DNA of 64,000 nucleotides from Eubacteriales bacterium (GTDB taxonomy: Bacteria > Bacillota > Clostridia > Oscillospirales > CAG-382), in NCBI GenBank assembly GCA_045644305.1, contig JAZRGS010000075.1, positions 465 to 64,464 of the forward strand. The letters run 5' to 3'. The position numbers were made by a program, and so were the translations under genes. The notes below the pieces were generated by a model that was not told the DNA's origin, ran no database searches, and worked only from the letters and a program-made list of their open reading frames with translations. Shown one piece after another: positions 19,385 through 63,200 of the stretch; position 1 is the stretch's first letter; every line of letters begins with the position of its first letter.

Positions 19385-20992
19385 ATGGCAAATACCGAAC
19401 ACATCGGCGAAAATAATTATGCCATTGAAATGAGAGGAATCACCAAAACCTTCGGAAGCGTCGTTGCCAACAAGGGCATCAATCTTTCGGTAAAATCGGG
19501 TGAAATCCTCGCGCTGCTCGGCGAAAACGGCTCGGGCAAAACCACCCTTATGAATATGCTGTCGGGTATTTACAAGCCCGACGAGGGCAGCATTTTCGTT
19601 GACGGACAAGAGGTCTCGATCAACTCTCCCGAGGACTCTAAAAAATATGGAATAGGCATGGTGCATCAGCATTTTAAGCTTGTTGATGTTTTTTCTGCCG
19701 CAGATAATATCTGGCTCGGACGCGACAATTCCGGCTTCCTGCTTAAAAACGACCGTTATTCGACGATTGAAAGCCTTGCAAACACCTTCGGCTTCGAATT
19801 AGACCCCAGAAAAAAGGTTTATAATATGTCGGTTTCCGAAAAGCAGACTCTTGAAATCGTCAAGGTGCTTTGCTACGGCGCAAAGATCGTCATTCTCGAC
19901 GAGCCGACGGCGGTTCTTACCGTTCAGGAAATCGAAAAGCTCTTCAACGTACTCCGCCGTATGAAGGAGGAGGGCCACGCAATAATCATCATCACCCACA
20001 AGCTAAACGAGGTTATGGAAATTTCCGACCGCGTTGCGATTTTGCGTAAGGGCGAATATATCACGACCGTCAACACAGACGAAACAAATGAACAGCAATT
20101 GACCGAATATATGGTCGGCAGAAAGGTCGACCTCAACATCAACCGTCCTCTCGTCGAAAAGACCCGCCCGCTTCTCGAGGTGCGCGAGCTTACCATTCAA
20201 AACGACGAGGGCGCAACCGCAATCGACAACGTCAGCTTCTATATCCGCGGCGGCGAAATTTTGGGCGTTGCGGGCATCGCGGGCTGCGGTCAGAAGGAGC
20301 TTTGCGAGGCTATCGCGGGACTTCGCCCGATAAAATCGGGACAAATGATACACAAGGGCGACAACATTGTCGGACTTTCGCCCAAGCAGATTCTCGAAAA
20401 GGGCATATCGATGTCCTTCATCCCCGAGGATAGACTTGGTATGGGTCTTGCACCCTCGATGTCGATAACCGACAATATGCTTTTAAAGAACTATCGCGAC
20501 GGCAACAGCCCCTTTGTCGACAGAAAGCGCGGCAAGGCGGACGCCGAGCAGATCATCAAGGAGCTCGAGGTCGTCACTCCCTCGGCTGAAACACCTGTAC
20601 GCCGTCTTTCGGGCGGTAACGTTCAAAAGGTTCTTCTCGGACGTGAAATCAAGGCTGGCCCGAACGTAATCGTAACCGCTTACCCCGTGCGCGGACTTGA
20701 CATCAACTCGTCTTATATGATCTACGATATCCTCAACAAGCAAAAGACCGATGGCGTCGGAATTTTGTTCGTCGGCGAGGACCTTGACGTTATGATGGCG
20801 CTTTGCGACAAGATAATGGTGCTCTGCCACGGCAGACTTATGGGCGTGGTTCACGCGCACAAAACCTCTAAGAGCGAGCTTGGTCTTATGATGACGGGTG
20901 CGCTTGACCTCAGCGAAAAATATGAGGACAAGCCTGCGGGTATCGCAAAAGACACCCTTTTCGGTGAAAATACGGCTAAGGAGGAACAGTAA
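19385..20992 (+). CDS. ABC transporter ATP-binding protein (tandem NBDs)
   Basis: ORF 19307-20992, with likely start ATG 19385 (MANTEHIG) after AGGAGG. First NBD: Walker A GENGSGKTT, signature VSEKQ, Walker B ILDEPT. Second NBD: signature LSGGNVQK. Confidence 0.85.
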   Translation: MANTEHIGENNYAIEMRGITKTFGSVVANKGINLSVKSGEILALLGENGSGKTTLMNMLSGIYKPDEGSIFVDGQEVSINSPEDSKKYGIGMVHQHFKLVDVFSAADNIWLGRDNSGFLLKNDRYSTIESLANTFGFELDPRKKVYNMSVSEKQTLEIVKVLCYGAKIVILDEPTAVLTVQEIEKLFNVLRRMKEEGHAIIIITHKLNEVMEISDRVAILRKGEYITTVNTDETNEQQLTEYMVGRKVDLNINRPLVEKTRPLLEVRELTIQNDEGATAIDNVSFYIRGGEILGVAGIAGCGQKELCEAIAGLRPIKSGQMIHKGDNIVGLSPKQILEKGISMSFIPEDRLGMGLAPSMSITDNMLLKNYRDGNSPFVDRKRGKADAEQIIKELEVVTPSAETPVRRLSGGNVQKVLLGREIKAGPNVIVTAYPVRGLDINSSYMIYDILNKQKTDGVGILFVGEDLDVMMALCDKIMVLCHGRLMGVVHAHKTSKSELGLMMTGALDLSEKYEDKPAGIAKDTLFGENTAKEEQ

Positions 20993-47910: not shown

Positions 47911-50900
47911 ATGAAAAAGGCGATTGCGGTAATTTTAATATTGCTTTTGATACTGCCTGCCCTGATTTCGGCAGGGGGTCTTCTTTTCGCGCCCAAATCG
48001 CTTTTTTACCGTCTCGATTCGCAACGAGAAATTGCACTTCAGGCGGCATTGGGAATCAAGAGCGGCAAGCAAAGCGCCGCAAATATGCTGCCCGACGGCG
48101 ATCGATTTATCGTCCGATTCAAGGACGATGCGCCGCTTAATGAAATCGAAAAAACACTCAAAAACAAGGACTTCAATCTGCTGGCGGACAGCAAAAGCAG
48201 GCTGTTTGCGATTTCGACCGACGAATCCTTTTTAAAGCACAATTCCGACGTAATCGACTATTACGAGCCCGATTTACAGCGCGCGCCGCTTGCAACCACC
48301 AACGACCCGATAACCCTTCCCGTTTACGAATCGATCGGCATCAACACGGCTTGGGACAGCGTCAGCGCAAACAGCGATATCATCGTTGCGGTGCTCGACA
48401 CCGGCGTTGACCGCACCCACGAGGACCTTGCGGGCACGAACATTTTGAACGGCTACGATGCGGTTGCGAAAACCGCGGGGGTAAACGGTGACAGCGTCGG
48501 TCACGGCACGGGTGTTACCGGCATTATCGCCGCTACCGCAAACAACGAGCTCGGCATCGCGGGCGTCGCACACGGAGTCACGATTTTGCCGATCAAGGTT
48601 TCGTCGAGCGGGGCGATAATCTATTCCTCCGACCTTATCGCGGGCATTCGCTTCGCCGCGGATGCCGGTGCGAAGATCATAAATATGTCGGTCGGCGGAT
48701 ATTCTTTTTCCGATGCAGAGCAGGAGGCTGTCAACTACGCACTTTCGAAGGGCTGTATTCTTATCGCCGCCTCGGGCAACGGCGGCAACACGCCTTATTC
48801 CGACCAAGAAAGCTATCCCGCATCTTACGAGGGGGTAATTTCGGTCGCTTCCTGCACACCCGACGGAAAGCGCAGCAGCTTTTCGCAATATAACGAATTT
48901 GTCGACGTTGCGGCTCCCGGTGAATTAATAACCATGCCCCGAACCGAAAACGGCGAATCGATTTATATCACCGATTCAGGCACGAGCTTTTCCTGCGCTC
49001 TTGTGAGCGGCATCGCTGCTTTGGCGGTTTCGCGAGCAGATAGCTCGGTTCGATTCGGATGCGACGAGTTTTTGTCGCTCATTATCGATTCCTGCGGAAG
49101 CAAGCGCAACGACGAGCTCGGCTATGGAATCATCAACGCGTACGAAATCATAAGACGCGCAAACCTACCGATAATCACGGGGGTTGCCGAGGGACAAACC
49201 TATTACGACCGTGTCACCATCGGCTTTAACAGAGGCGAGGGCTTTTTAAACGGCGAGCCCTTTGAGGACGGAGACGTCGTTATTTCAAACGGCAGACACC
49301 AATTCACCGTTATCGACAACGGCGCCGAAAGAACCATAAACTTCAGGCTTGATTACGTCCCCTTGTCCTATGAATTCAAGGAATTCGTCTCGTTTGCAAC
49401 CTTTGAATTCGAGCGCGGCGAGGCATTTCTCGACGGATTCCCCTATGCCTCGGGCGACAAAATAACCACCTCGGGCGTGCATCAATTTATTTTGATCGAC
49501 GGCGACGAGAGGATCGAAAAGCAATTCACGCTTGAATACGATCTGCCGATAGTTTTCGGCGTCGAGGACGGCAAGACCTACAATCACCCCATTGAAATAA
49601 AGATTCTCGGCACCGGCGGAGCAGAGCTCGACGGCGAGAAAATATTCGGCGAGGTTGTCGTTGCAACGCACGGAAGTCACACCCTGACCCTTACAAGCGG
49701 CAACGGTGCGGTCAGCGAAAGCTATGAATTTACAATCGATTTCCCCTTTTCTCAGCTCATCGAAAATGATTACGCGGGCGGCAAGGCGGCTATCGACGAC
49801 GAAAACGGCTATTTCTGTCTTTACGGCGATTCGCTGGTCGGCGCGAGGATTTATTCGCTCGACGAGCCCGAGCAATTTTTGCATTTCCTCCCTGTCGGCA
49901 GGGTTTATTCGCACGGCTTTACCGAAAGCTCGCTGTATTTGCTTACAGACGAGGGCGTGACCGTCATTTCGCGAAGCGATGCCTTGAACGGCGAAAGCGC
50001 GATTACCTTGACCTATAAAAACCCCGATTTGATAAATTACGTCTTTGCCGAGGGAGTTGTTTACGGCTTTTCCGACGAGCATATGTACAGGCTCGAGCTT
50101 GAGCGCGACATTATTCATCAGGTTGCGCGTCTGGGCTTTACCTGCGAAAGGGCATTTTACTCGAACGGAGAATTCTGCCTGCTTTCCCCCGCAAACGACA
50201 GAATCGTCAGACTTTTAACGCTTGAAGACGGAATTGTTTCAAGCTTTGACGCAGGCATAAATCTCGACGGTGTCCCTCTTTGCTACGGCGAGGGTTATTT
50301 GTCGGCAGGTTACAGGCTTTTTGACGTGGCAAGCGGCAGGGTTGCGCTTGAAACGCGTTCCTATTACGGAGTGAAAATCGAAAACGGCATTCTTTTCACC
50401 GAAAGCCGAATGATCGAAATCGCCTCGGGCAAGGAAATAGCAAGCTTTGCCTTTGATTTATCCGATATTTGCCAAACCGAGCGCGGGGTTTACCTTTTCG
50501 GGCTCGAGCAAATTATGGTCCGCATCGAGGGCGGAGTCGAGGGCGTCGCCGCATATTACGCGGCAGAGCGCAACAACTCAAGCCTTATCGCTTCGGAGCC
50601 GACGAACGTTTACACCCACAATCTTTACTTTGATAAGCATTCGACGCTATCTTCGGCAGCCACCGACGAGCAAAATTTGTATATGCTGTTCGAAGACAAA
50701 AACGCCGTTTTCAGCTTTTCGCTTTTAAACAACAGCGAAAATGAATCTATTCCTCTGCGATACACCCCCGAAGCGGTGTTTGCCGCGAACGGTTATATCG
50801 CAGTCACCTTCAAGCAGGAATCCTTGGTTTATCTCGCGCAATCGGCGCTCCCGTCGGAGGGTGTTTACGTCGATATTCCCGCAAAAACAAGCTCTGTCGC

Positions 50901-53376
50901 CGTGGGCGGAGGCCGATTCTTCGCAGTTTGCAACGGCAGACTCTTCTATTGCAACCTCGACGGAACGGCTCCGACCTTCACTCAAACGCGAGCGGAGCAA
51001 ATCGCCTGCGATTCAGGCAGACTTTATATCATCAATCAAAAAGTGCTTTCGGCGCACAATTTCGCCTTAACCGAAGCCATTTCGATAACCACCGAAGGCG
51101 GAAAGCTTTTCGTCGGCAGCGGCGTTGCGGTCGGCGGTGTTATCTACGACAAAACCCTGAATTCCGAATTCGCACGAATCGAGGATGAGGTTTTAGGCTT
51201 TAACGGCAACACCTTAATTACCGAAAAAGGGCTTTACAATCTCGTTTCCAAGCAATATTCCTGCCCTCTTTTGGAAAAGAGCCTGAATTTCGCTATAATC
51301 GGTGGAAACAGCAAGCTTGTTTCGATAGGTGAAAAATTTATCTCGATTTCTGGCTATGAGGACGGCAGAGAAATCAGCGCGATTCCCTATATCGACGGCA
51401 TCGCCGAAAACGGAATCTATTCCGACCGACTTGTAATCGATTACAGCCACGGCATCGGATATCTTGATGGCAACCCGATCGCTTCAGGCGAAGCGGTCAC
51501 CGAGGCGGGCGAGCATATTTTCCGCGTCGTGCTTCCCTGCGGCGGCGCAATAAGCATAAAATTCAAAATCGAAGCCAAGCTTGAATCGATCGAATTTCTC
51601 GGCGGCGACAAGGTTATGTCCATCGGTGAAACGATCGCACTCGGCGTGCTTTATCTCCCCGCGGGCGCGGGCTCTGTCCCCGTAAGCTTCAAAAGCGACG
51701 CTACGGGAATCACGGTAAGCGAAAACGGCGAGGTCACCGCTCATGAGGTGGGTGTTTACAGCGTTTTCGTAACAGCCGAAACCGATTACGGCATATTCAC
51801 AGCCGAATGTAAGATCACTGTACGCGACGACCTGATCGCATTCGCGCCCGAGCATGGCATCACCATCGACCGTAACAACCAAGTCGTTTTGGGTCTTAAG
51901 CCCGGTACGACTGCCGAATCGGTCATCGCAATGCTCTATAACAGCACAAACGTATTCATTTTAACGCCAAAGAACAGCGAGGCAAAAAGCACCGACGTTG
52001 TCGGCACAGGCTATAAAATAGTGGTCGGCGATTCCGAAAGCCTCACCGACGAGTTAACCTTTATTATCATCGGCGACACCGACGGCGACGGATATATTTC
52101 CGCCTACGACCTTTACGTCGAGGAGCGAATCCTGCGCGGATACACTTACGAGCTCCCCTACAAGGCGGCGGCAGACATTAACGGCGACGGAGTTGCCAAC
52201 GACAGCGATTACCGCGCGCTGAAATATCAGGTTTTGGGAACCGCCGAAGCCGAAGTCGGCACCCCCGACGAAAGCATATTCGGACTTGCAACCGCTCAAA
52301 CCGTAACGAGAATCGAAAGCGGAAGCATAATCGACGTCGCAATCTGCATAAGCGGATGCAAATATGCACGCGGCGTTTCGGGTGCAATCAATTTCGGTGA
52401 AGGACTTCAGTTCATCGAGGGCGAAAGCGTCGGCTGGGATTGCGATTTCAAGGAGCTCGACCAAAAAATAGCCTTCTTTGCTTACGGCGAAGACGGAACC
52501 GAATGCGGTCGTGCGTTCAAGGTGGTTGTAAACCTTAAATTCCGTGTCACCGCGCAAGCAGGAAAAACGGTTTCCTTCTCTTCCGAAGGGCTTACCGCTT
52601 CCTTTAACGACGGCTGCCGCATCATCCGATTCGAACCGAGCGAGCGTTTTGTTTACTCGACGGGCACGGGCGATTTTAATCTTGAAATCCAAAACGCAAA
52701 CGGCTTCAAATTCTCCCCCGACGTTTACGAATACAACATCGTCATCCCCTATAACAGCGCACTTTTAGACCTTTCGGTCACACGAAATATCGGACAAACG
52801 GTAAGTGTTTCGGGACTTACAATCCCCGATTCCGACGAAAGAACGATAACCGTAACTCTTAGCTCGCTTGACGGAAAATCGGTCTTTTACACGCTTAGGG
52901 TAAAACGCGACGACGAGCCGAGATTCGATACAAACTGCAAGCTGAACACGCTTGAAATCGAGGGCTTCAGGCTCGAGCCGCTCTTTTCGCCCGATATACT
53001 CGAATACGACGTTTTTGTGCCGCACGGCACCGAAAGCATCAACCTTTACTGCGTTGCACAGAACCCGTCGGCGCAGGTCGTTGTAAGCGATACGACGCTT
53101 AAGGGCAGTCACACAATCGTCACGGTGACCGTGGGCACGCCCGACGGCGAAATGCTGGTTTATACGCTAAACGTCGAGATTCTCCCGCCCGAGGAAGAAT
53201 CAATCCCCGACGTTATCGACGATAAAAAGGGCGATAACCCGATTCTGACAACGGTTATCATCGTTTTGATTGCGCTTCTAACCGTAGCAGGGCTTTTCTT
53301 CCTATATAAACGCAATAAAATCGACGAACCGATTTCAACCAACGACGATAACGAAACGCAAGCAAACAATCAATAA
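47911..53376 (+). CDS. giant surface protein: S8 subtilisin-like protease + repeat modules + Big_2 + dockerin + cohesin-like + two cadherin-like beta-sandwich domains + C-terminal TM anchor
   Basis: 1821 aa with a signal peptide. Catalytic triad: D in VAVLDTGVD (~48385), H in HGTGVTG (~48501), S in GTSFSCA (~48978). Four ~55-aa repeats fit the pattern G.(A/G)(F/Y)LDG.P...G..(I/V)...G.H.F. A Big_2-like segment lies at ~51580-51825. A dockerin (GDTDGDGYISAYD...DINGDGVANDSDY) lies at ~52060-52245. A cohesin-like beta domain lies at ~52290-52640. Two cadherin-like repeats contain (F/L)SPD(V/I)(Y/L)EY(N/D). A TM helix lies at ~53225-53300. Confidence 0.85.
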   Translation: MKKAIAVILILLLILPALISAGGLLFAPKSLFYRLDSQREIALQAALGIKSGKQSAANMLPDGDRFIVRFKDDAPLNEIEKTLKNKDFNLLADSKSRLFAISTDESFLKHNSDVIDYYEPDLQRAPLATTNDPITLPVYESIGINTAWDSVSANSDIIVAVLDTGVDRTHEDLAGTNILNGYDAVAKTAGVNGDSVGHGTGVTGIIAATANNELGIAGVAHGVTILPIKVSSSGAIIYSSDLIAGIRFAADAGAKIINMSVGGYSFSDAEQEAVNYALSKGCILIAASGNGGNTPYSDQESYPASYEGVISVASCTPDGKRSSFSQYNEFVDVAAPGELITMPRTENGESIYITDSGTSFSCALVSGIAALAVSRADSSVRFGCDEFLSLIIDSCGSKRNDELGYGIINAYEIIRRANLPIITGVAEGQTYYDRVTIGFNRGEGFLNGEPFEDGDVVISNGRHQFTVIDNGAERTINFRLDYVPLSYEFKEFVSFATFEFERGEAFLDGFPYASGDKITTSGVHQFILIDGDERIEKQFTLEYDLPIVFGVEDGKTYNHPIEIKILGTGGAELDGEKIFGEVVVATHGSHTLTLTSGNGAVSESYEFTIDFPFSQLIENDYAGGKAAIDDENGYFCLYGDSLVGARIYSLDEPEQFLHFLPVGRVYSHGFTESSLYLLTDEGVTVISRSDALNGESAITLTYKNPDLINYVFAEGVVYGFSDEHMYRLELERDIIHQVARLGFTCERAFYSNGEFCLLSPANDRIVRLLTLEDGIVSSFDAGINLDGVPLCYGEGYLSAGYRLFDVASGRVALETRSYYGVKIENGILFTESRMIEIASGKEIASFAFDLSDICQTERGVYLFGLEQIMVRIEGGVEGVAAYYAAERNNSSLIASEPTNVYTHNLYFDKHSTLSSAATDEQNLYMLFEDKNAVFSFSLLNNSENESIPLRYTPEAVFAANGYIAVTFKQESLVYLAQSALPSEGVYVDIPAKTSSVAVGGGRFFAVCNGRLFYCNLDGTAPTFTQTRAEQIACDSGRLYIINQKVLSAHNFALTEAISITTEGGKLFVGSGVAVGGVIYDKTLNSEFARIEDEVLGFNGNTLITEKGLYNLVSKQYSCPLLEKSLNFAIIGGNSKLVSIGEKFISISGYEDGREISAIPYIDGIAENGIYSDRLVIDYSHGIGYLDGNPIASGEAVTEAGEHIFRVVLPCGGAISIKFKIEAKLESIEFLGGDKVMSIGETIALGVLYLPAGAGSVPVSFKSDATGITVSENGEVTAHEVGVYSVFVTAETDYGIFTAECKITVRDDLIAFAPEHGITIDRNNQVVLGLKPGTTAESVIAMLYNSTNVFILTPKNSEAKSTDVVGTGYKIVVGDSESLTDELTFIIIGDTDGDGYISAYDLYVEERILRGYTYELPYKAAADINGDGVANDSDYRALKYQVLGTAEAEVGTPDESIFGLATAQTVTRIESGSIIDVAICISGCKYARGVSGAINFGEGLQFIEGESVGWDCDFKELDQKIAFFAYGEDGTECGRAFKVVVNLKFRVTAQAGKTVSFSSEGLTASFNDGCRIIRFEPSERFVYSTGTGDFNLEIQNANGFKFSPDVYEYNIVIPYNSALLDLSVTRNIGQTVSVSGLTIPDSDERTITVTLSSLDGKSVFYTLRVKRDDEPRFDTNCKLNTLEIEGFRLEPLFSPDILEYDVFVPHGTESINLYCVAQNPSAQVVVSDTTLKGSHTIVTVTVGTPDGEMLVYTLNVEILPPEEESIPDVIDDKKGDNPILTTVIIVLIALLTVAGLFFLYKRNKIDEPISTNDDNETQANNQ

Positions 53377-53453
53377 AAAGCTCGGAATGGCGATGCACCA
53401 TAGTTTTAAATCGCCTTAAAAGATTCATTTTTGCACAATATTGCGCCCAAACA

Positions 53454-53486
53454 AAAAACGCTTAGGCTTAAACCTAAGCGTTTTTT
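53454..53486. terminator. bidirectional terminator between the S8 gene and the tubulin-like operon
   Basis: Stem cgcttagg (53459-66) / cctaagcg (53473-80), loop cttaaa, flanked by an A6 run and a T6 run. Confidence 0.7.
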
Positions 53487-53493
53487 ATTTGCC

Positions 53494-56400
53494 TTAAAGC
53501 GGTTTTTCGGGGTCTTCGAACGGGGTTGCGCCCTTGAGGCTTGTGGTTGTAGACAAGGGATAAACCGATGTGTACATATTAAAGCCTCTGCCGTATTCGT
53601 CTTCACGCATACGGGAAATGATTTCCTCACGCTTACCTGTCGCGAACTCGTTTATAAGGTATGCGTACTGAACCTCACTCCACTTCGCCATACCCTCGTA
53701 AATTTCGAGGTTAAGCTTCTTACCGTAGAGCTTCTTGATCTTCTTCGCATCCCAATTGAGATACTGCCAAATGTGAGTCATTTCGTGAACCATTGTCATG
53801 GTTGCGCTGATACGAGGCGAGCCGTTTTCAAGAAGGATAGAATATCCTTCCTTATCCTTAATAGCCACGCCCAATACGCGTCCGTCGGAGTTGCCCGTGG
53901 GAACAAAGCGTTTGCCGAGCTTGCGGTGCAAGGTCTTTGCGTTAACCATCTTGATCTGAACGGGTTCGTTTATCACGACACCGTAGAAGACCTTCATGTT
54001 ACGCATTACATCCTCGTAAAGCTGCTTAAATTCCTTTTCGGTCTTAACAGCGGTACGGCTGCAGGAGATACAACGCTCTCTGCCGTCGGCGAGAACCTCA
54101 TATTCGGTACCGAGAAGCTCGGTTCCGCAGAAGTCGCAGTAATGGTTGCCCGAGCGAGTCGGGTCATAGCTGCCTTCAAGGCGTTCTGCCTCGTGCTTGC
54201 CCTTTCTTGCCTGCTCGAGGAAGCCGTTCGCATATCCGAGACTTGTCAGAAGCGCGAGCGTTCCGTCGATATCAATGCTTTCGGGCATATCGGTTCCGCC
54301 GTAAAGGAGGTAATAGCGTTCGTGATAGGGCTTGCGAGCGAATTCCTTGCTGTTTACAAGCTTGCTGCCATCTGCTTCGAATTCGAACTGAGCGGCAATG
54401 CCTTCACCCTGAGGTGCGCCTTCGGGTACATCGACTCCGTCAAGGCCTTCGCCGTAATCGGGGTCGTCCTCGGGCATGGGCTGAGGCTCGGGCGCGCTTT
54501 CGCCCTCGTCGGAGGGTTCGGAATCAGCGGCAGGCTCTGCTTCGTCCTTTTTCTTCTTTTTACCGAAGCCGAAGAAGCTGTACATAGAGATGCTTGCATT
54601 TGCATCAAGCTCGCCGTCATCCTCATCCTCGGTAGCCGAAGAGTCGGTGTTTTCGGCACTTTCGGGAGTGTTCAATTCTTCATCGTCGATGTCGGAAACG
54701 TCAAAGGGAAGGTCGCCGTCGTCGGAAGAAGCTTCGGCGGAGGGCTTGTCGCCCTCGGTCAATTCTTCGTCGTCGATATCCGATACGTCGAACGGCAATT
54801 CCTCGCCGTTTTCGCCCGTCGGAGTCGTTACTGTCGAATCAACGTCCGCGTCCTTGTCCTTTTTCTTTTTACGTTTAAACAATCTCTTGAAGAAGCCCTC
54901 GCGCTTCGGCTTATCGCCGGTATTACCGTCGGTTTGCTCGGTTGCGCCCGCCGCTCCGTCCTTCGCAGGCTCGTCGTCGGTCTTGGGCTTACGTCCGAAC
55001 AGCTTTCTGAAGAAGTTTCCGATTCCGCGGAACATCTTCTTGAAGAATCCGCCGATTTTCTTGAAGAATCTGCCGATTGCCGCGAAGAATCCCTTGATTC
55101 CCTTCTTTTTCTTTTCTTCCTCGGGAACCGTATAGTCGGGCTTTTCGGGCTCGACAGGGGGAGGACTCATGCTTTCGGCAAGGGTTTCGTTATGCCATTC
55201 GATATAGTCGTGAATGATGGTGAATATGCGGTTGAGGTTTCTTTCAACGCTTACCAACAAGCCGATATCGAGCTGGCTGTCTTCAATAATATAAATAGCG
55301 TTTGCGGAAGGCTGATATTCACCCTCGCCCTTAAGCGAGTAGGTTACGGGCACCTCGGCTTCGTTCGCGGTAACCGCAACTATCATGCCCTGATTGTCGG
55401 CATAAAGTGTACGGAATACCTCGTTCATAAGCAGAGCGATGGTATTTAATATCTTCGGGGTGATACCCTCACCCTCGGTGAATTCGATCTTGAGCATCTG
55501 CTTGTTACTGTACTCGCGCTTGGGCACGCCGTTGATCTGGATGCACTTGCCCGTGCTGAAGTCGTTGTAACGCTTCATGCTCCAATACGCGGGGGTTTCG
55601 ACGGCAATATCTGCATATTGCTTGGTCACCTTAACCCCGCCGATGTCGCGCATATCGCCCATCATCGTGGAATCGACAGCCGACGAAATGGTGTAGTTAC
55701 GAACCTGACGGTATTGAGGTCTGCCGTTGATATGGTCTGCGGCACGGCGAACTATAACCTTGCCGTCGGAGGACAAACGAAGCATTTCGTAATACTTGCC
55801 CCCGAAGGTAAAGAACTGACCGGGCAGATACTTCTGGAAGACGTGACCGCGAAGCTCGGTACCGAGGTACTGCTTTTCTCCCTTTTCGTCCTCGGCGATG
55901 TATTCGGCAGAGCAAAGGTCGCCCAAGAATACGTCGACGAAGCGCTTGTCGGAGATAGAGTACATATTTTCGATGTTGCCGGTTTTGTAGGAATACTTGC
56001 GCTGAACGTCGATAACCGACGGGCCGAACACGTATTCCCTGCCGTTCTTCATTATGTGAAGCTCGTCTTCACCGTCAACCGTTGCGATGCCTGCGTTTTG
56101 CGAGCACTTGCAAATGCTTTGCCAGATGGTCGACGCAATATTTTCGGTATCCATATCGATAAGCGAAAGCTCACGCGCGATTTCATCCTCGAGCACGTTG
56201 TAGGAGCTCAAGCGCAGACAAAGTCTGTAAATAACGTTTCTTTCGGTGCCCGCATAATCGGCAACGATATAGGGAATCGCCTTGGAGTCGGCATTGAAGA
56301 TGGTATCGTTAGCCGACATATAATCTTTAAGAAGATATTCCGAGGAGATTACGTTGATAAAGCCCTGCTTCTTGGCACGCGTGGAGAATTCACGCTTAAC

Positions 56401-58233
56401 CTCGAACATATTGTAGCTTTCGTCCTCGACAGTGATGTAATTGTAATCCTCTGCCTCGGCATCCCACATATTCGGGGTTGCCTTAAAGACGTCGTCAACG
56501 ATATTTTGCTGTGCGGGAAGCGCCGCATAGGTGAGCAGATCGTAGTGATACTGCTTCACGATCCAGTGCATATCAAGCACGGGGAATGCTTCGCCGCCGT
56601 ACCAAGCGGTTTTGGACACCTGATTCTTGAGCGCGGTGAACGAAAGCTCGGTACCGACACCCAAGTATCTCGAAAGGTTGGGTAACATTCTGTGCTGAAG
56701 GTGCTCGTCGTCGACCTCCCAGCACATATAAGAGGAAGTTCCGCCGTGTCTGTTCGTCGCAGAAACCTCTTCAAGGCTCGTCATAAGAATGTGCGAAAGT
56801 GCATCGACGATGCCGTCGCAGTTTTTGTCGGCAGAACAGAAAACAAGGCGCTTTCCATCTCTGCGGCAATGTCTTACAAGCGAGTTAAGACCGATCTGTG
56901 CGGTTGCAACCAGCCTCGAGGGCTCGATAATTACGACGAATTCGACGTCCTTAAAGAATTCCTCGTTTGCTTCGTGCATTTTCAAATCGTGAACGCAGGA
57001 TCTTGTTACGATACCGACGTCAAGATTCTTTTCCTCATCACCCAAAACGCCGATATTCCAAAGCGTCGGAATGTGGCAAACCGACGTCAAGCCGTCGCGA
57101 AGCCATTCCTCAACGCCATCCTCGATCGCGTGGCGTCCGCAAACGACAAGCACCTTTTTACGGCGAAGTATCGCGCGGTTCATCGGATAGAAGATATAAG
57201 GAATAAGGTCGTAATAGAAGGGGTTGTTGAAGAGTATGCTCTTACCCTTTAAAAGATCGAGACCCGACATCAAATAGTTTTGGTCGACGTCAAGACCCTG
57301 CATCGTTTTATGACGCATGAATTTGCCGTATGCCTCGATAGCGACCTCATCGTCGTCCTCGAGGTTGCCGATAAGCTCGTCGTTCGTGCGGTAATGAAGC
57401 AAGCCGTTGTTTACCGTGGTGTTTTCGCTTAAAAGCTTATCACCGAAGGTGCGGCGAAGCACGTTACGCATAAGCGTATAATCGCAAATCGAGCTCGAGC
57501 TGTCTGCCTCGCCCTCGATCGTGCCCTTGTCCTCTGCATAGAAGGGGCCGTTGAGGTAGAAGTAGATTTCACCGACAAGAATAAGGCTGAAAATCGGGTA
57601 ATACATGGATGCGATCAATTCGTGGGTGTACATCCAAGCGGTGATACCGATGCCGGCAACGGCAAACACGAACGTAACGATATAAAGCGTCTTCATAAGG
57701 GTCACGCCCTGAGAAAATGCCTCGCGCACGAACATTTTGCCGCGGCGCTCGTCCTTGTAATAAACAAGACCCGCGAACCAATCGTAATGCTTCTTGCCTT
57801 CCTTGCAGAAAAGCTTCATGAAGCGGATGATTATTCCCTTGAAGGGAACGTAAACGATTGCCACAAGCGTATTCGCGATGATTCCCGCCCAGAACGGGAT
57901 ATTGAGCGACTTGATGAATTCCTCAAGCTTGGGCACGATTTCGCGAATCTTGTACGCAAAATCCTCAAACCTGCCCTCGAGCAAGCCCGCGATCCAATCG
58001 GCGCCGTAGGTCAACCAAGTCGTAATCTGGTTGAAAACGTTAACGATAAGAGCGTTTATCTTGCTGAGGAATACACCTGCCACTATGCAGAAGATCAAAG
58101 CGATTATCGGCATATAGCATTGGCGGGAGCGCTGTTCCTTTTTAAGGTTCATCTTTGCGGAAAGAAGCACCAACAGAAGGAACGGCGCACTAACCAAAAG
58201 CACGTCAAGGAGAAACGAAAGCAGCTTAATCAT
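53494..58233 (-). CDS. giant polytopic membrane protein (gene C): about 5 N-terminal TM helices, large unassigned cytoplasmic region, charged disordered linker, zinc ribbon + DA1-like HExxH metallopeptidase module
   Basis: 1579 aa. ATG 58233 is preceded by GGAGAGAGG and overlaps the gene B stop (ATGATTAA). There are TM helices in aa ~1-225. The segment GLDLLKGKS...KKVLVVCG...VEFVVIIEPS loosely resembles a degenerate NTPase/helicase core without a true Walker A. Basic-aromatic FFKK repeats and acidic repeats lie at 54541-55125. Zinc ribbon CDFCG-X17-CISC at 54061-54141. HEMTH at 53773-53787, followed by IYEGMAKW at ~53685-53705. Confidence 0.7.
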   Translation of the reverse strand: MIKLLSFLLDVLLVSAPFLLLVLLSAKMNLKKEQRSRQCYMPIIALIFCIVAGVFLSKINALIVNVFNQITTWLTYGADWIAGLLEGRFEDFAYKIREIVPKLEEFIKSLNIPFWAGIIANTLVAIVYVPFKGIIIRFMKLFCKEGKKHYDWFAGLVYYKDERRGKMFVREAFSQGVTLMKTLYIVTFVFAVAGIGITAWMYTHELIASMYYPIFSLILVGEIYFYLNGPFYAEDKGTIEGEADSSSSICDYTLMRNVLRRTFGDKLLSENTTVNNGLLHYRTNDELIGNLEDDDEVAIEAYGKFMRHKTMQGLDVDQNYLMSGLDLLKGKSILFNNPFYYDLIPYIFYPMNRAILRRKKVLVVCGRHAIEDGVEEWLRDGLTSVCHIPTLWNIGVLGDEEKNLDVGIVTRSCVHDLKMHEANEEFFKDVEFVVIIEPSRLVATAQIGLNSLVRHCRRDGKRLVFCSADKNCDGIVDALSHILMTSLEEVSATNRHGGTSSYMCWEVDDEHLQHRMLPNLSRYLGVGTELSFTALKNQVSKTAWYGGEAFPVLDMHWIVKQYHYDLLTYAALPAQQNIVDDVFKATPNMWDAEAEDYNYITVEDESYNMFEVKREFSTRAKKQGFINVISSEYLLKDYMSANDTIFNADSKAIPYIVADYAGTERNVIYRLCLRLSSYNVLEDEIARELSLIDMDTENIASTIWQSICKCSQNAGIATVDGEDELHIMKNGREYVFGPSVIDVQRKYSYKTGNIENMYSISDKRFVDVFLGDLCSAEYIAEDEKGEKQYLGTELRGHVFQKYLPGQFFTFGGKYYEMLRLSSDGKVIVRRAADHINGRPQYRQVRNYTISSAVDSTMMGDMRDIGGVKVTKQYADIAVETPAYWSMKRYNDFSTGKCIQINGVPKREYSNKQMLKIEFTEGEGITPKILNTIALLMNEVFRTLYADNQGMIVAVTANEAEVPVTYSLKGEGEYQPSANAIYIIEDSQLDIGLLVSVERNLNRIFTIIHDYIEWHNETLAESMSPPPVEPEKPDYTVPEEEKKKKGIKGFFAAIGRFFKKIGGFFKKMFRGIGNFFRKLFGRKPKTDDEPAKDGAAGATEQTDGNTGDKPKREGFFKRLFKRKKKKDKDADVDSTVTTPTGENGEELPFDVSDIDDEELTEGDKPSAEASSDDGDLPFDVSDIDDEELNTPESAENTDSSATEDEDDGELDANASISMYSFFGFGKKKKKDEAEPAADSEPSDEGESAPEPQPMPEDDPDYGEGLDGVDVPEGAPQGEGIAAQFEFEADGSKLVNSKEFARKPYHERYYLLYGGTDMPESIDIDGTLALLTSLGYANGFLEQARKGKHEAERLEGSYDPTRSGNHYCDFCGTELLGTEYEVLADGRERCISCSRTAVKTEKEFKQLYEDVMRNMKVFYGVVINEPVQIKMVNAKTLHRKLGKRFVPTGNSDGRVLGVAIKDKEGYSILLENGSPRISATMTMVHEMTHIWQYLNWDAKKIKKLYGKKLNLEIYEGMAKWSEVQYAYLINEFATGKREEIISRMREDEYGRGFNMYTSVYPLSTTTSLKGATPFEDPEKPL

Positions 58234-60235
58234 ATATTTCCTCTCTCCTTACCGTAATATTTTTAACAAAGTTGACCGGCACGTCGATTCGGTTGCCGCT
58301 GCGCATGAATTCGATCTGCTTTACCCTGCCCTCGGTATAAGGAATCGGGTAAGCGTATTCGACCGGCTTTTCATAGTTATAATCGTATTCCAACATATTC
58401 GAAGTGTCGATTTCCATCTTTTCGACCATATAATGACCGAAAATGTCGCGGGAATCCGCCTTTGCCGTTTCGATATCGATGATATGCTTGCGGTAAAGGA
58501 TCATCTTCGCCTTGTCGGGGTCCTCGCGGTTTTCTGCTGCGTCAAGCACCTTAAAGCCGCGGCGAACGTTGCTGACGTGACCCAAATACTGCGAATAATC
58601 GGACATTGCGCCGTAAATCTCGTTATTTATCTCTTCAGCCGTGCGGTTATACGCCTTAAACTTCTTGACAAGCGCGTGTCTTAAGAAGAAAAGCGTAACA
58701 ACGGCAGTGAGCGCGAAAACGCCGAGCGCCGAAAGCGCGATTATCGCAGAGGTGGTCATATTGAAGAAGCTGGAAGAGGAATTCTGCCAGAATAACGTGA
58801 AGAATCCGAGAACAAAGGCAAATGTTGCGATAGCGCCGATGGTTATCGTCGTGCCCTTGTGCATTCTCTTCCTTATTTTTTCTTTAACCCTTTCGCTATC
58901 CTCGTCGAGCTTTTCGAGGTAAATATCCTCATCGTAAAGATCGGGGATAGGCACAGAAATCATTCCAAGCTCCTCGTTGGCGATGTGCTCCTTAACGTCT
59001 TCTATTTGGAATTCGTTAAGCAAGCCGACTCTCGTCAGGTCGCCGCCCTCCTCGGCGCGGCAATCTGTTGCCGCACGCTTCAGAGCTCTGCGCGCCTGCT
59101 TCAAGGTTCTGTGCAAGGCTTTTTTGGATTTACTGTAACGGGAATCCCAGACAGCGTCCTCTTCCGAGGGACAGCCGTTTGCGAGACCTATGTCTTTATG
59201 AGCTATATACAGCTCCTTCGTGTCGGTATCCTCACTAAAAGTGACCGGAACCGTCACCGAGCTGCAAAAGATCTTTTCCGCCTCTCTGTCGCTCATGCGT
59301 TGAGGACGTTTGGATTTGATTGCAACGATGCGCTGCTCGAGCATATCCTTGGTAAGATCGAGCTTTGCTTCGTAGGTGAAGAGCAGCTCGCGCAGAGCTT
59401 CTTCATCGTGCTCGCAATCAAATTTATAGACTCGGTTCGGACTGAGACTACCGGCAGGTATTTCGTTCGCTGCCAACAGCATAGTCGCATAAAGGAATCT
59501 TACGTAATCGAAGGGATAGTTGCGTTGGGTCTTCGGCAGGATGTCGAAAACAAGATAACGCATCTTGTCAAAGTACATATTCCTGTCGTAGAAACGCGAA
59601 TATTCTGTTTCGTTATGGGTGGTCCAAGCGTTTTCGAAATCCTGGTCCTGAGCGAAAAGGGTACGCTTTGCTACACAAACGACTTCGGACGGAAGAGACG
59701 TGTAAAACACCTCTTCGTTACGAATAGCCTTGCGCAATTCCTCTTTTTTGAGGTATTCCGCAACGTATCGCTTATATTCGTTGTCGCCTTCAAGCTCGGA
59801 TTCGGGCATCGAAACGATCGGGCCCTCGCAGAAATAGGTTACCAAGCGCGTGAGCGAAAATTTAGAGGCTTCTTCGTATGCCTTGAGCTTCTTTTCGTGC
59901 TCGCTTGCGCGATACGCCTCAAACTGCTCGGAGTTGCCCTCGTCGAGCTCGCCGATGATATTTCCTTCAAAGCTTTCGGGCTGATAGCTGACCAAATCAA
60001 ACGGATTTTTCTGTCTGATTCCGTCCTCGTCACAGATAATCAGAGCGCGCCATTCGGTACGTCTGCCGATTGCTTCGGGAAGCTCGGGCACCATTTCAGC
60101 CAGCGTGGTTCCTTCGGGGTTCCATTCACAGAACGCCACGTGCTTGGGATCCATAAACGGCTTTAAAAACAGGCTGTATACGTTGACCTTATCGATATAT
60201 TCCTTTTGGGCTATTATAGCGGTGAACAATTTCAA
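58226..60235 (-). CDS. hypothetical two-TM protein (gene B of the tubulin-like operon)
   Basis: 669-aa ORF beginning at TTG 60235. A second TTG at 60229 has better spacing (9 nt) from GGAGG at 60239-60243. Two adjacent TM helices (TITIGAIATFAFVLGFFTLFW and AIIALSALGVFALTAVVTLFFL) lie at about aa 470-530. No domain recognised. Confidence 0.6.
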   Translation of the reverse strand: MKLFTAIIAQKEYIDKVNVYSLFLKPFMDPKHVAFCEWNPEGTTLAEMVPELPEAIGRRTEWRALIICDEDGIRQKNPFDLVSYQPESFEGNIIGELDEGNSEQFEAYRASEHEKKLKAYEEASKFSLTRLVTYFCEGPIVSMPESELEGDNEYKRYVAEYLKKEELRKAIRNEEVFYTSLPSEVVCVAKRTLFAQDQDFENAWTTHNETEYSRFYDRNMYFDKMRYLVFDILPKTQRNYPFDYVRFLYATMLLAANEIPAGSLSPNRVYKFDCEHDEEALRELLFTYEAKLDLTKDMLEQRIVAIKSKRPQRMSDREAEKIFCSSVTVPVTFSEDTDTKELYIAHKDIGLANGCPSEEDAVWDSRYSKSKKALHRTLKQARRALKRAATDCRAEEGGDLTRVGLLNEFQIEDVKEHIANEELGMISVPIPDLYDEDIYLEKLDEDSERVKEKIRKRMHKGTTITIGAIATFAFVLGFFTLFWQNSSSSFFNMTTSAIIALSALGVFALTAVVTLFFLRHALVKKFKAYNRTAEEINNEIYGAMSDYSQYLGHVSNVRRGFKVLDAAENREDPDKAKMILYRKHIIDIETAKADSRDIFGHYMVEKMEIDTSNMLEYDYNYEKPVEYAYPIPYTEGRVKQIEFMRSGNRIDVPVNFVKNITVRREEIYD

Positions 60236-60290: not shown

Positions 60291-63200
60291 TCAACCAAGC
60301 TTTTCCTTCATTTTGTTGATCATGGACACATAATCGGAGGGTTCGGGAGTTGCTTCGATTACCTGTCTGATCTTGCGAAGGATGATTTCGAGAACGGGGT
60401 TGTCCTTCTTTTCGAATCCGCCGCGAAGCTTAGGATACTTATCGTATTTTTCCATAAGAAGGTTATACTGCTGTTCAAGGATCTTACAAAGAACGAACTT
60501 AACGTCGTCCTTGTCTTCCCACATAAGAAGCTCGTCTTCGAAGGTCTTGATAACAGCATCTACGATAGCGGAGATTTCACCGTTGAAGCGCTTGTTGTTG
60601 GGAAGCGATGCATAGTAGTAAACAGGGATTTCGAAGAGCGAGGAAACTTCGCCTGCGGGAATATCGTTTTCCTTGCAATCGTCGTCAACTCGGCTTTCGC
60701 AGATAAGGAAGCTGTCGAGCGACTTCTTGAATTCGGTTTCCTCGTAGCATGCGTGGTGCATACGGTCCTTGTAGTTCTTCTTTGCCTTGATAACGTCGAT
60801 ATCAGAGACAATGAAGGGGCTGATGTACATCGAGTCTACCAATTCATAGAATTCGTCGCAAGGTGTGTTGTTCGAAACCGAAAGGGTTACGTACTGCTCG
60901 TCGGAATTCTGATACTTATAAACCATTCTGTCGTCAGCAACAAGAGAAAGCTTGCAGCGACGGAGCGCCTTATAAATAAGACCGTAGATCATAGCCTGAT
61001 GGATTCTGAGCATTTCGCGTTCCTGATGACCGAAGTCGAGCTCAGGCATTCTGGAAATGTTATCCCAGCGCTTGTCGATGTGGGTAGAGATCTTTGCACC
61101 CTTGGTGGTGTCGGGACCGATATCTCTTGCATAGCTTACGTATGCGTTGTAGTAGAGACCGCCCTTTCTCTTGGTGGTTTCGGTGATCTGAGGAGCGGCA
61201 AACTTGTTGAGCTTGTCGGGAGTGAGGTTATAAAGAGCGTTGAAGAAGCGAAGCTCGTACTTCGAGATGCTGTCGACCGCGTTACCCTTGGGCATGAGGT
61301 CCTTAACTCTGTAAGTACGCATTTCGGTGAGCGCTCTGTTATATGCAACAAGTGCGATTTCGCGAGATTCAACGTTACGCATACGCTGAACCGAGGGAGC
61401 CGCAAGGCGTGCACCCATCGCGATAACTTCCTTGATGTGTCTTTCGTAATCTTCGTTGCTGAGCTTATCGAATACCTTTTCGGTCTTGCCCTCGATACCG
61501 TTCATCATTTCGTTTTCTTCGCGGGTCTTACGACGAGCGGAGAGACGCTTTTCAAGCGCGATAGCTTCGATGATGTTTACGTCGAGAGAAGCGCACTTGC
61601 GGCGAACGTCCTTCTTGAAGTAGCCAACGAGAACGTCGTCGAAAATGTCGATACGCTTATCCTCTTCAACAACATCAAGAGCAGCCATTTCGCGTTCGAA
61701 TTCAACGTTCTGCTTCATTGCGTCGAAGATTTCAGCGTTTGCTTCGGAATCGAGAAGAGTGCCTTCCTTGCTCTGGCTCTTGGTGGAAAGGCTTGCTTCA
61801 TCGAGAAGGTCCTTGGATGCGCAAACGTTGAATACCGAGTCACCCTTACGGAACGAAAGGATATCTACAAGATCGTCCTTCTTCTTGGTGAGGGCTTCAA
61901 CCTTTTCCTTGAAGGTTGCATAGAATCTTTCGAATGCTTCGCAAAGATCCTTAACGTAATCGTAACCGATTCTGTAGGTTGCGAGCTTTGCTTCGGCTTC
62001 ACCGTACTTGGTGATACCTGCATAATATTTGGGGAAGTAATCGTTGAGCTGGTCATAAACCTGCCATGCACCCTTCATCTTTTCCTTGAAGGAGGGTTCT
62101 GCGAGAGCAACTTCACAAAGTGCATCGAGGTTTCCTTCCTGCTCCTTAGTGTACTTAGCGTCGAACTTTTCGGGGTTATCCTGCTTGCTGGAGAAGATAT
62201 CAAGTGCCTTCTTGGCCGAGTCGCGGATAGCAGAAGTTTCGTTCAACTTCTTATCGAACGCGGTCTGGAGAGAGTAAAGAATGTAACGCATTGCGTTAGG
62301 ATGGCAAACCTCACCATAGGTGTTCTTCATAAGAGCCTCGAGGGTGTGCTTATCCTGTTCCTTAGCGTTGATGGTCTTGGTTTCGTTACGGAAGATAGCT
62401 TCTGCAACGCCTTCTGCGATCTTATACGCCTTTTCACCCATAATTCTTTCGTAATTACGGAGCTTGCCAAGGTCGCCGGAAGCGTTACCGCACTTATCGG
62501 GGTTGCTTCTGTAATCGATCTTATTTCTGAGAAGGTTTGCGCCGGTCATCGCGTTGCGAACCTCGTTATTGTTGCGGAGTTCCTTAAGAACCTCTGCTTC
62601 GAGTGCTGCGATGTATGCATTGATACGGCTCTTTGCGCCGTTGAGGTACTTGTCGCGAAGATCCTTCGAGAAGTTATCCTTAGAGGAATCGAGCTTTTCG
62701 ACGTAAACCTCGGGGAGCTTGGGAAGGTCTGCAAGAGAGAGACCCTTCTTGCGTGCTTCCTGCTGAAGTACGTAGAATGCCTTGTCGTATCTCGACCACT
62801 TTGCAGCTTCGCCTTCGCCGCCGATGCTTTCGATAGCCCAGTCGTATGCAACGTAGTCTGCAATGTCTTCGTACGGATAGCGGATGGTAGCCGCGCCGAT
62901 AGCACCGAAACGGTTACGGCCGTAGTTACCGGGGTTGGACATTTCCTTGATGATGTTATCTTCAACCGAGAAAGCATTCTTCTGCATAGGACCGATGTTC
63001 TGTTCGTAAAGCGCCTGTGCAGCCTGCTTCTTATACTGTTCGATACTTACAAGGGTGGTATCCTCGGCGTCCTGACCATCCATAAGGAAGCAGAAGCCGA
63101 AGGGGAGGATGCCCAAGGACTTCTTGTCCTCGGTGCCGGGGATCGGGAAATCGATGTGAAGGTTGCCGTAGCGCTTGAGGTCGCTTTCAACGTCAAGGAA

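Follow-up and report, generated by a model that had tools for sequence, protein, structure and literature searches.

A membrane-anchored protein with a helicase-like core and a zincin-like C-terminal module, encoded with the tubulin-like GTPase FtsZl1 in an Oscillospirales bacterium

The stretch of DNA analysed here (the window) comprises 64,000 nucleotides (nt) of an Eubacteriales bacterium (Clostridia, Oscillospirales, CAG-382; assembly GCA_045644305.1, contig JAZRGS010000075.1, positions 465 to 64,464), and this work concerns gene C (53494-58233, minus strand), the last gene of an operon within it and the source of a 1579-amino acid (aa) protein of the 'B12' family, read from an ATG start. 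On the same strand, gene C is preceded by gene B (58226-60235), a 669-aa member of the 'B5' family with a hairpin of two transmembrane (TM) helices at aa 464-509 (58709-58846), and by gene A (60291-63890), which encodes FtsZl1, a tubulin-like GTPase of 1199 aa with a long C-terminal extension, a Tubulin_2 domain at aa 16-353 (62832-63845; Pfam PF13809, E 1.2e-54), and the motifs GVGGTG and SGGTGSG. Of the upstream gene U, encoding a vWA protein, the last 19 codons (KSPQNGPSVTFDCKVCTEK) and the stop codon lie inside the window (63941-64000, minus strand), the rest being outside it. They match the end of the 844-aa U gene of a related locus, L001, whose gene C is 88% identical to that of the window; the U protein of L001 combines a signal peptide with a vWA MIDAS motif (DNSGS) and a beta-rich region, and has in addition a late TM helix and a cytoplasmic tail. 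Of 84 loci, 74-80 preserve the order U-A-B-C. The stop of gene B overlaps the ATG of gene C by 8 nt, the last codons of B contain a strong Shine-Dalgarno sequence, and a hairpin with a T-run directly after the stop of gene C (53453-53486) represents a terminator common to the operon and to a convergent subtilase gene.

Gene C begins with a membrane domain (aa 1-229; 57547-58233) of about five TM helices, as judged from hydropathy, from lysine and arginine (K/R) counts of the loops, and from the helices of an AlphaFold (AF2) model. It is followed by a putative pseudo-helicase core similar to MrfA/YprA helicases of superfamily 2 (SF2) (aa ~250-1022; 55168-57486), predicted to be cytoplasmic and recognised through the AF2 model and Foldseek, by a low-complexity tether rich in proline and acidic residues (aa 1023-1295; 54349-55167), along which conservation drops to 0.1-0.3, and by a C-terminal module (aa 1296-1579; 53497-54348) in which the alignment and AF2 delimit a helical lead-in, a zinc ribbon, and a minimal gluzincin-type peptidase. 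An earlier annotation made by a model from the letters alone (hereafter, the sequence-only reading) had described gene C as a polytopic membrane anchor joined to a degenerate NTPase-like core and to a zinc-binding HExxH peptidase. All the motifs that it listed are there, with coordinates off by one codon at most, and the membrane anchor was borne out by four to five N-terminal TM helices (hydropathy and AF2).

The core was modelled with AlphaFold on aa 1-1030 (pLDDT, standing for the predicted local distance difference test, 85.4; predicted template-modelling score, pTM, 0.72), and the model was compared with the Protein Data Bank (PDB) using Foldseek. The best match was the DUF1998 helicase MrfA of Bacillus subtilis (6znp_A), with E 1.2e-23 along 825 aligned columns and a target-normalised TM-score of 0.55-0.62. 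Hel308, Lhr, Brr2, the Pol-theta helicase, and RecQ came next, in the range of E 1e-8 to 1e-5, with the canopy-less helicases (Hel308, E 2.7e-8) far behind MrfA. In all, 265 PDB matches were found at E<1e-3, and the top 50 listed were all SF2 helicases. The central region thus models as a RecA/helicase-type fold, as the sequence-only reading had guessed from strand patterns. No helicase signal was detected by sequence, either with Pfam and NCBIfam on the whole protein, with a profile search of the PDB, or with Pfam on 32 members of the family at E<=1. Likewise, the 150 listed matches of a profile search against a representative library were all close family members, with no bridge to active helicases.

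The domains of MrfA are described as NTR, RecA1, RecA2, WH, rope, OB, CON, and MZB, the latter with four Cys (PMC7797055; Bell et al. 2025, bioRxiv 10.1101/2025.09.15.676423). The model of gene C resembles this architecture overall, with apparent RecA1 and RecA2 domains, a helical domain, a beta-rich OB/CON-like region, and a DUF1998/MZB-like end. In addition, a strand at aa 267-274 stands ahead of RecA1, which may or may not correspond to the NTR of MrfA, an N-terminal beta-strand inserted in the RecA2 sheet.

More than 90 positions between aa 213 and 1013 are invariant in an alignment of sequences from Bacillota and Actinomycetota (30-91% identity), and the equivalences to helicase motifs were read from the secondary structure of the model (DSSP) against this alignment. 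The strand SILFN (aa 332-336) would correspond to beta1 and is followed by a helix at aa 340-356. Between both, the position of motif I (PTGSGKT in helicases) would be occupied by a three-residue loop and the start of the helix, in the sequence NNPFYYD (aa 336-342; 57208-57228), of which P338, F339, and D342 are invariant. The region of motif Ia would be VLVVCGRH, within a segment that starts with KKVLVVCG (aa 359-366), and that of motif II (DExH) would be FVVIIEPS, contained in VEFVVIIEPS (aa 430-439; 56917-56946; strand 430-436) and conforming to the pattern (I/L/V/A)-E-P-S, with E437 and P438 invariant. Motifs III and VI would be represented by CSADKNCDG and TRAxxQGF, respectively. Finally, the cysteine-free sequence IYIIEDSQLDIGLL (aa 980-993; 55255-55296), in which E984, D985, D989, and G991 are invariant, is the probable equivalent of the DUF1998 motif, to judge from its pattern and from the match of the whole chain to MrfA.

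Across the family, GK[ST] at the P-loop position was found in 0 of 299 cores, and xEPS at the position of motif II in 270 of them. The proposal of an inactivated NTPase scaffold in the sequence-only reading was hence upheld: the model matches SF2 helicases, with MrfA as the best, and both the P-loop and the Asp of DExH are missing in 299/299 cores. Its replacement of the DExx box by IEPS also stood. The GKS of GLDLLKGKS (aa 324-332), in which it had seen an off-register Walker A, turned out to be variable (GKS, GES, GQS, GNS, DVS) and to precede beta1, and it is no P-loop. As regards the zinc cluster of DUF1998, no Cys was found within aa 926-1022, the four-Cys cluster being absent, and Pfam DUF1998 was undetected in the 32 members at E<=1. 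This cluster has also been lost in Dpd (Bell et al. 2025).

These data support, at the level of the model, the assignment of the core as a YprA/MrfA-type SF2 pseudo-helicase. Having lost its P-loop, its Walker-B Asp, and the zinc cluster of DUF1998, the modelled core would most likely act as a non-hydrolysing ligand-binding or conformational scaffold and not as a motor. What it shares with MrfA/YprA proteins (6znp; DrmA/DrmB of DISARM; DruE; Dpd) is the multi-domain architecture with a beta-rich canopy and an MZB-like end, together with residual patterns at the positions of motifs I, Ia, II, III, VI, and DUF1998. In contrast, gene C has no detectable sequence similarity to MrfA, and it lacks motif I, the Asp of motif II (DELH in MrfA), and the four-Cys zinc site. 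Further differences are its N-terminal anchor of five TM helices, its C-terminal protease, which replaces a nuclease partner or comes without one, and its operon partners, a tubulin-like GTPase and a vWA protein.

The C-terminal module was aligned among 46 sequences, down to 33% identity and including stand-alone proteins of ~275-290 aa. Residues C1366, C1369, C1388, C1391, H1483, E1484, H1487, E1513, G1514, and M1515, as well as a DxYGxG motif, are invariant in this set (n=46), so that the His and Glu residues on which the peptidase proposal depended are conserved in relatives. The four Cys form the ribbon CDFCG-x17-CISC (54061-54138), made up of CDFCG (aa 1366-1370; 54124-54138) and CISC (aa 1388-1391; 54061-54072), with a spacing of CxxC-x18-CxxC that becomes X17 when counted from G1370 to C1388. 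In HEMTH (aa 1483-1487; 53773-53787), H1483 and H1487 are the predicted zinc ligands and E1484 the predicted catalytic residue, whereas the third ligand would be, following the gluzincin pattern, E1513 of YEGMAKW (aa 1512-1518; 53680-53700), 25 residues past the second His of HEMTH. The catalytic residues of the module are under strict purifying selection. Among sequences chosen by a crude module marker, 353 of 359 kept HExxH...EG, and the six exceptions corresponded to a truncated fragment, two actinobacterial cores without the module, a regular-expression miss (EGF), and two true degenerates, out of ~355 proteins that bear the module. The latter, P0380 and P0409, show HELTR and CELTK in place of HExxH, with the rest of the module kept, and represent rare and probably inactivated variants.

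In the AlphaFold model of the module (pLDDT 87.8), the lead-in is helical and is followed by a small ribbon, three strands, the helix of HExxH, and, further on, a helix that carries the Glu, with HExxH on a predicted helix at 185-204 and the Glu on a helix at 216-237 (module numbering; H194, E195, H198, and E224). Its top Foldseek matches in the PDB and BFVD were zincins only (best E 1.5e-3 and 2.3e-3; TM-score 0.2-0.36), including a Colwellia lipoprotein (3o0y), MATCAP, M32 carboxypeptidases, ACE2, anthrax lethal factor, IrrE, and SprT-like proteins. By sequence, the search for a profile match to zincin families was successful in part: DUF6782 (42/46 members), DUF6055 (35/46), and BSP (33/46) matched, all of them below the cut-off, with best per-member E-values from 1.7e-5 (DUF6782) to 1.1e-4. 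The ribbon gave weak matches to zinc ribbons of ribosomal eL43 (E 0.03) and to Pfam DZR, and a profile search of the PDB with the C-terminal module returned eL43 zinc-ribbon noise only.

We conclude that the module probably belongs to a family of minimal HExxH...E zincins that has not been curated and that possesses a zinc ribbon of its own. With the minimal zincins of the MA clan (DUF6782, DUF6055, and BSP, 'peptidase of plants and bacteria') it shares the pattern and spacing HExxHxxQ...EGxAxY/W and, in the prediction, the succession of three strands, the helix of the active site, and the helix with the Glu; it differs from them in its helical lead-in, its zinc ribbon, and a conserved DEYGxGF...TPF...PL tail, and it matches all of them under the gathering scores. 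We infer that the peptidase would be catalytically active and would cut proteins on the inner side of the membrane. MATCAP, the human tubulin detyrosinating metallocarboxypeptidase (7z5g), deserves mention as a gluzincin that acts on tubulin, a gluzincin being encoded here with a tubulin homolog; it was among the top fold matches of the module (E 0.01, probability 0.5-0.7), which is a lead only, as the TM-score was ~0.2, no sequence signal was found, and the C-termini of FtsZl1 are not conserved.

Core and module are joined by the tether, which in homologs ranges from 69 to 350 aa, contains 25% of D+E, and has a Pro-rich start and an acidic low-complexity part after an amphipathic motif. In gene C, the latter corresponds to the basic-aromatic segment GIKGFFAAIGRFFKKIGGFFKKMFRGIGNFFRKLFGRKPK (aa 1045-1084; 54982-55101), of FFxK type; the motif (GFFKKIGGFFKKLF-RKPK) was found in 114/120 homologs. 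The copy of one relative matches Pfam FtsA_C, the membrane-targeting helix of FtsA, with E 1.5e-4, and on these sequence grounds the segment is a probable membrane-binding helix. In addition, the acidic part of the tether contains two exact copies of LPFDVSDIDDEEL (54760-54798 and 54673-54711, minus strand), 29 residues apart and present only in the protein of the window and in its 88% relative, a pair that would be a lineage-specific duplication or a short linear motif.

At the other end of the protein, four TM segments were recognised by hydropathy (aa 4-22, 39-57, 109-127, and 183-201), to which a helix at aa 213-227 can be added from the AF2 model. The loop at 23-38 contains 5 K/R and that at 128-182 contains 12, whereas the loop at 58-108 has 6 K/R and 7 D/E. 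According to the positive-inside rule, the topology of gene C would be N-out/C-in with five TM helices; consequently, the core, the tether, and the protease would be cytoplasmic, on the same side as FtsZl1. Within the membrane domain, R35, K132, P213, and E222 are invariant in the alignment. Residue E222 lies within GEIYFYLNG (aa 221-229; 57547-57573, minus strand), in the last predicted TM helix, and is conserved from Clostridia to Microbacteriaceae; its buried charge suggests a contact with a TM helix of a partner (B or U), or the sensing of ions or protons.

A set of 5.8 billion proteins contained 614 homologs of gene C. The best 120 of these 614 have 1381-1670 aa and no Pfam domain, and the few that are named come from Oscillospiraceae, Acutalibacter, and metagenome-assembled genomes of Clostridiales. 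A profile of the N-terminal 1030 aa recruited 985 clusters (50% identity) at E<=1e-3, and 449 at E<=1e-30. Relatives were present in at least 314 of 185,579 species genomes of GTDB, the best 80 all being gut or rumen Clostridia. An exact-sequence look-up of the proteins A and C returned no record, and the 88% relative P0002 was used instead.

Two architectural variants were found. In Microbacterium, Naasia, and Humibacter, the operon consists of U, FtsZl1, B, a core gene of ~1100 aa, and a separate module gene of 274-278 aa, so a gene boundary stands in Microbacteriaceae where the tether would be. In Microbacterium, where the module gene has 274 aa, the core shows 32% identity to aa 4-1046 of gene C (E 6e-164), and gene B is homologous to a Microbacterium gene of 701 aa (24% identity, E 4e-42). 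This fission, read from the sequences, indicates that the protease module is an independent unit. In Clostridia, by contrast with the gene C of the window, which has no transglutaminase-like extension, the ORF (open reading frame) runs past the zincin in 37 of 78 species-level loci, and in 30 of these it does so by at least 398 aa (up to ~466 aa). The extension of L043 (L043:14681-15889) passes the Pfam cut-off of Transglut_core (26.3 bits vs. 23), and transglutaminase-type Cys/His/Asp motifs appear in four printed extensions; other extended loci include L052, L028, and L067. A TM helix separates the zincin from the extension in six loci, where it would put the transglutaminase-like domain outside the cell.

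Other genes were found close to the actinobacterial operons. In Microbacterium, a GmrSD_C/HNH nuclease gene (L002:10835-11647) starts 10 nt after the stand-alone module, while in Naasia the operon is located between sbcD and sbcC, with two GmrSD-type genes near it (L087:1034-2074 and 17790-19943) and a B protein that is apparently truncated (425 aa). Besides these, protein P0172 (L085:6250-7527, 425 aa) was considered as a natural fusion of tubulin and peptidase, for aa 1-175 of FtsZl1 continue in it, within one reading frame, into the final 250 aa of the module, and was rejected as the apparent product of a deletion of ~10 kb in a strain similar to R. lactaris. Genes of 739 and 732 aa lie upstream of it; the deletion would have taken A for the most part, the whole of B, and the core region of C, and it was seen in two related samples.

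The family has a previous record. Additional file 5 of Makarova & Koonin 2010 (Biol Direct 5:33, PMC2875224) lists FtsZl1 together with B12 (RUMLAC_01526, BACCAP_04121) and gives for Ruminococcus lactaris and 'Bacteroides' capillosus the order vWA, FtsZl1, 'B5', 'B12', with sizes in the capillosus locus of 861 aa for the vWA protein, 1183 for FtsZl1, 658 for B5, and 1435 for B12; the order in the window is the same, and the sizes are in agreement. Gene C is 53% identical over aa 31-1023 (tblastn) to locus L022 of Pseudoflavonifractor (formerly Bacteroides) capillosus ATCC 29799 (NZ_AAXG02000044.1), whose ORF of 1447 aa, against the 1435 aa listed for BACCAP_04121, was equated with the latter by strain, gene order, and sizes. 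Because of this identity and of the shared arrangement, gene C is a B12 protein, whose protease, zinc-finger, and membrane character has been on record since 2010 in a supplementary table only: B12 appears in Additional file 5 and is absent from the family table of Additional file 6 (B1-B9), as well as from those passages of the main text that were consulted.

What was already known is, therefore, the gene family and its protease annotation (2010). The combination of domains that the sequence-only reading had called unusual is in this respect not new. The entry of Additional file 5 contains no helicase-like core, tether, actinobacterial fission, or transglutaminase extension, and no report was found in the searched literature of the YprA/MrfA pseudo-helicase identity of the core, of the conserved amphipathic helix and tether, of the module fission in Actinobacteria and the transglutaminase fusion in Clostridia, or of a quantified conservation of the catalytic residues. 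Similarly, nothing relevant was found in the literature on DUF1998 together with tubulin.

On this basis, we propose that gene C is a membrane scaffold or sensor bearing a tethered active protease that would work on the inner side of the membrane and be controlled by the pseudo-helicase together with FtsZl1, a picture to which we give an even chance of being right; our confidence is lower for any specific biological role than for the molecular picture. Gene C would be the membrane-anchored scaffold and protease subunit of a four-gene module, the other products being an extracellular vWA protein, the FtsZl1 GTPase, and a 2-TM protein. Its approximately five TM helices would put the remainder of the protein in the cytoplasm, where a body of ~770 aa that keeps the MrfA/YprA architecture would serve as non-hydrolysing scaffold. 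The conserved amphipathic helix would bring the chain back to the membrane surface, and an acidic disordered tether of 70-350 aa would bear the zinc ribbon and the HExxH...E metallopeptidase. Its own tether is a candidate substrate, as are A, B, the tail that the vWA protein has in the cytoplasm, and a protein of an invader; the body of the pseudo-helicase, together with the tubulin-like partner, could gate the access or the activity of the protease. Of this picture, the computation covers the predicted topology, the folds, the loss and the conservation of motifs, the conserved operon, and the splitting and joining of the module, whereas catalysis, substrate, gating, and biological role are inferences.

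Several results weigh against this proposal. The equivalences of the core motifs depend on secondary-structure register and pattern in the model and not on residue-level superposition, and invariant residues (G366, R367, E437, D469, R619, and others) line the former nucleotide cleft, in which some ligand, even a nucleotide, could still be bound, to judge from this conservation. The zincin assignment lies below every curated threshold, and the best fold match (E 1.5e-3) has a TM-score of 0.2-0.33. No experimental study of any FtsZl1 operon was found in the literature searched. As for a role in defence, the defence-island test on 132 flanking ORFs from ~80 loci detected no enrichment, with no Pfam family in more than 2 of the 132 flanks and few single defence matches, the flanks being diverse and mostly housekeeping; PADLOC gave no matches for genes A, B, and C, and no copies were present in plasmid and phage collections.

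A specific version of the scaffold-protease proposal, rather than a contradiction of it, is an anti-phage or conflict system in which the pseudo-helicase would bind DNA or RNA (e.g., a phage genome at the membrane), licensing the assembly of FtsZl1 and releasing the protease, with a transglutaminase or an HNH effector in relatives, and with the killing or the protection of the cell as outcome. We take this as a tentative possibility, less likely than not. It agrees with the fact that DISARM, Dpd, Druantia, and ARMADA are built around YprA/MrfA helicases (bioRxiv 10.1101/2025.09.15.676423), with the varying effector-like domains at the C-terminus, with the GmrSD_C/HNH gene of Microbacterium and the GmrSD genes near the Naasia locus, and with a patchy distribution in which the genomic location varies between species. 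It also agrees with Kaur, Burroughs, Iyer & Aravind 2020 (eLife 9:e52696, PMC7159879), passages of which reinterpret tubulin-vWA-GTPase neighbourhoods as NTP-dependent conflict systems. The GAP1-N2 systems presented there, from Firmicutes and Actinobacteria, resemble the operon in combining a tubulin of FtsZl1 type with a membrane vWA protein whose vWA domain is extracellular. However, and unlike in those systems as the passages describe them, no GAP1 or other GTPase gene accompanies FtsZl1 in the operon of the window or in L001, L002, L087, and L088, and neither a pseudo-helicase nor the B12 zincin is described in the passages concerned. Also contrary to a conflict role are the negative PADLOC result, the overwhelmingly housekeeping immediate flanks, and the absence from plasmid and phage collections just mentioned, together with the silence of the 2025 survey of the YprA family (Bell et al.) on tubulin, FtsZ, transmembrane forms, or an association with zincins.

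The second alternative is a cytoskeletal or membrane-remodelling machine, in line with Makarova & Koonin 2010, in which FtsZl1 filaments anchored by B and C would shape the membrane or vesicles, and the protease would mature or turn over the filament or its anchors. Passages of that work (PMC2875224) argue for such a role of FtsZl1 systems, and all four proteins are membrane-associated or able to reach the membrane, through the TM helices of U, B, and C and the FtsA-like helix of C; the location of the operon among housekeeping genes points in the same direction. Against it, the patchy presence in at least 314 of 185,579 species genomes fits an accessory and not a core function, and a zincin, a transglutaminase, an HNH nuclease, and a helicase fold with affinity to defence would be unexpected in a shape machine. 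Moreover, according to the same passages, FtsZl1 has no recognisable T6-H7 elements, and its formation of filaments is therefore unproven. We consider this explanation rather doubtful. Between both types of role, that in conflict or defence seems somewhat more likely than membrane remodelling. In its favour are the descent of the pseudo-helicase from a fold family that is dominant among defence systems, the modular and effector-like nature of the C-terminus, the HNH/GmrSD_C gene that follows the module in Microbacterium, and the patchy distribution.

A bolder and decidedly unlikely extension would make the operon a membrane-embedded immune or conflict machine, with a helicase of the YprA lineage turned into a non-hydrolysing sensor, in which the nucleic acid of an invader or a signal through the vWA protein would lead to the GTP-dependent assembly of the tubulin homolog and unleash the protease, plus the transglutaminase in many relatives. 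In a sub-variant, drawn by analogy, the protease might process the tubulin homolog, as a prokaryotic counterpart of the processing of tubulin tails by MATCAP and vasohibin. A conserved C-terminal peptide of FtsZl1 was considered as the target of the protease and discarded, as the C-termini of gene A are not conserved across the family.

With regard to the core, it could still be an NTPase by means of non-canonical residues, gene C then being an active motor such as a translocase. The invariance across Bacillota and Actinomycetota of G366, R367, E437, P438, D469, G474, D477, E603, D604, R614, and R619 could be expected from such a motor, including as it does the Walker-B Glu equivalent (E437) and one Arg similar to that of motif VI (R619). 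Nevertheless, the beta1-alpha1 loop, of ~3 residues in the model, contains no Lys or Ser/Thr in 299/299 cores, a hydrophobic residue takes the place of the Walker-B Asp, and no NTPase model of Pfam was detected even at E<=1 in the 32 members, all of which makes an active motor improbable. As for the peptidase being a homolog of plant DA1, regulated by a LIM domain or zinc finger, on a bacterial membrane protein, the shared order of a zinc-binding module, HEMxH, and EG reduces to a motif-level resemblance and membership is highly improbable, since Pfam DA1-like (PF12315) scores 12.4 bits against a cut-off of 25 (its single match, E 0.099, only 34 residues around HExxH) and fails to appear in the list of the 25 families with most matches among the 46 members, 33-42 of which match DUF6782, DUF6055, and BSP, and since gene C has one CxxC-x18-CxxC ribbon with eL43-like similarity where DA1 has a two-zinc LIM domain and UIM motifs, with no LIM or UIM match among the Pfam matches returned (UIM motifs were not searched for specifically). 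Of the DA1-like assignment made in the sequence-only reading, then, the zinc ribbon and the HExxH...E zincin remain, and the DA1 family and the LIM domain do not.

The FtsZl1 proteins count as some of the most divergent in the tubulin/FtsZ superfamily. Their largest partner in gut Clostridia and Microbacteriaceae would be a dead YprA/MrfA helicase with a live-looking protease, which offers three experimental handles: the active site of the protease, the nucleic-acid-binding groove, and the tether. The ancestry would link this partner to the helicase family of DISARM, Druantia, Dpd, and ARMADA. Widespread, with ~450-1000 clusters at 50% identity, it is not recognised as a helicase by sequence and is absent from the PADLOC models tested. 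Should defence or signalling turn out to be the function of the operon, no earlier device of that type would be known to make a tubulin homolog cooperate with a pseudo-helicase.

Regarding the surroundings of the operon, the convergent neighbour of gene C (47911-53376, plus strand) encodes a subtilase of 1821 aa, a large secreted protease, possibly of cellulosome style. Its Peptidase_S8 match (E 7e-47) is joined by dockerin and cadherin-like domains that pass their Pfam cut-offs and by a faint match to cohesin. This neighbour is kept in the 88% relative and not in other loci. Elsewhere, three gene families recur beside the operon, mostly directly downstream and on the same strand: one of ~600 aa in 15 loci (e.g., L006:14786-16762), another of ~700 aa, with faint Castor/Pollux/RCK-like matches, in 11 loci (e.g., L009:12367-14484), and a third of ~155 aa in 9 loci (e.g., L011:13354-13827). 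The three are unannotated and may be accessory subunits, and none of them is next to the operon of the window.

Finally, two features of gene B were followed. Its assignment as a SLATT protein was rejected, as DUF4231 reached 21.3 bits vs. 24.7 (E 3.6e-4) and NCBIfam SLATT_1 E 0.085, with neither of them matching the B proteins of P. capillosus and Microbacterium. At the junction with gene C (58226-58250, minus strand), protein B ends in ...VRREEIYD, and a tail REELYD was found in 66/81 loci, compared with an overall identity of B of 28-57%. REELYD was discarded as a functional peptide motif, as the same bases form the Shine-Dalgarno sequence (AAGGAGAGAGG) and the ATG of gene C (AAGGAGAGAGGAAATATATG); its conservation would instead reflect a dual-coding constraint of translational coupling and need not indicate a functional peptide tail.

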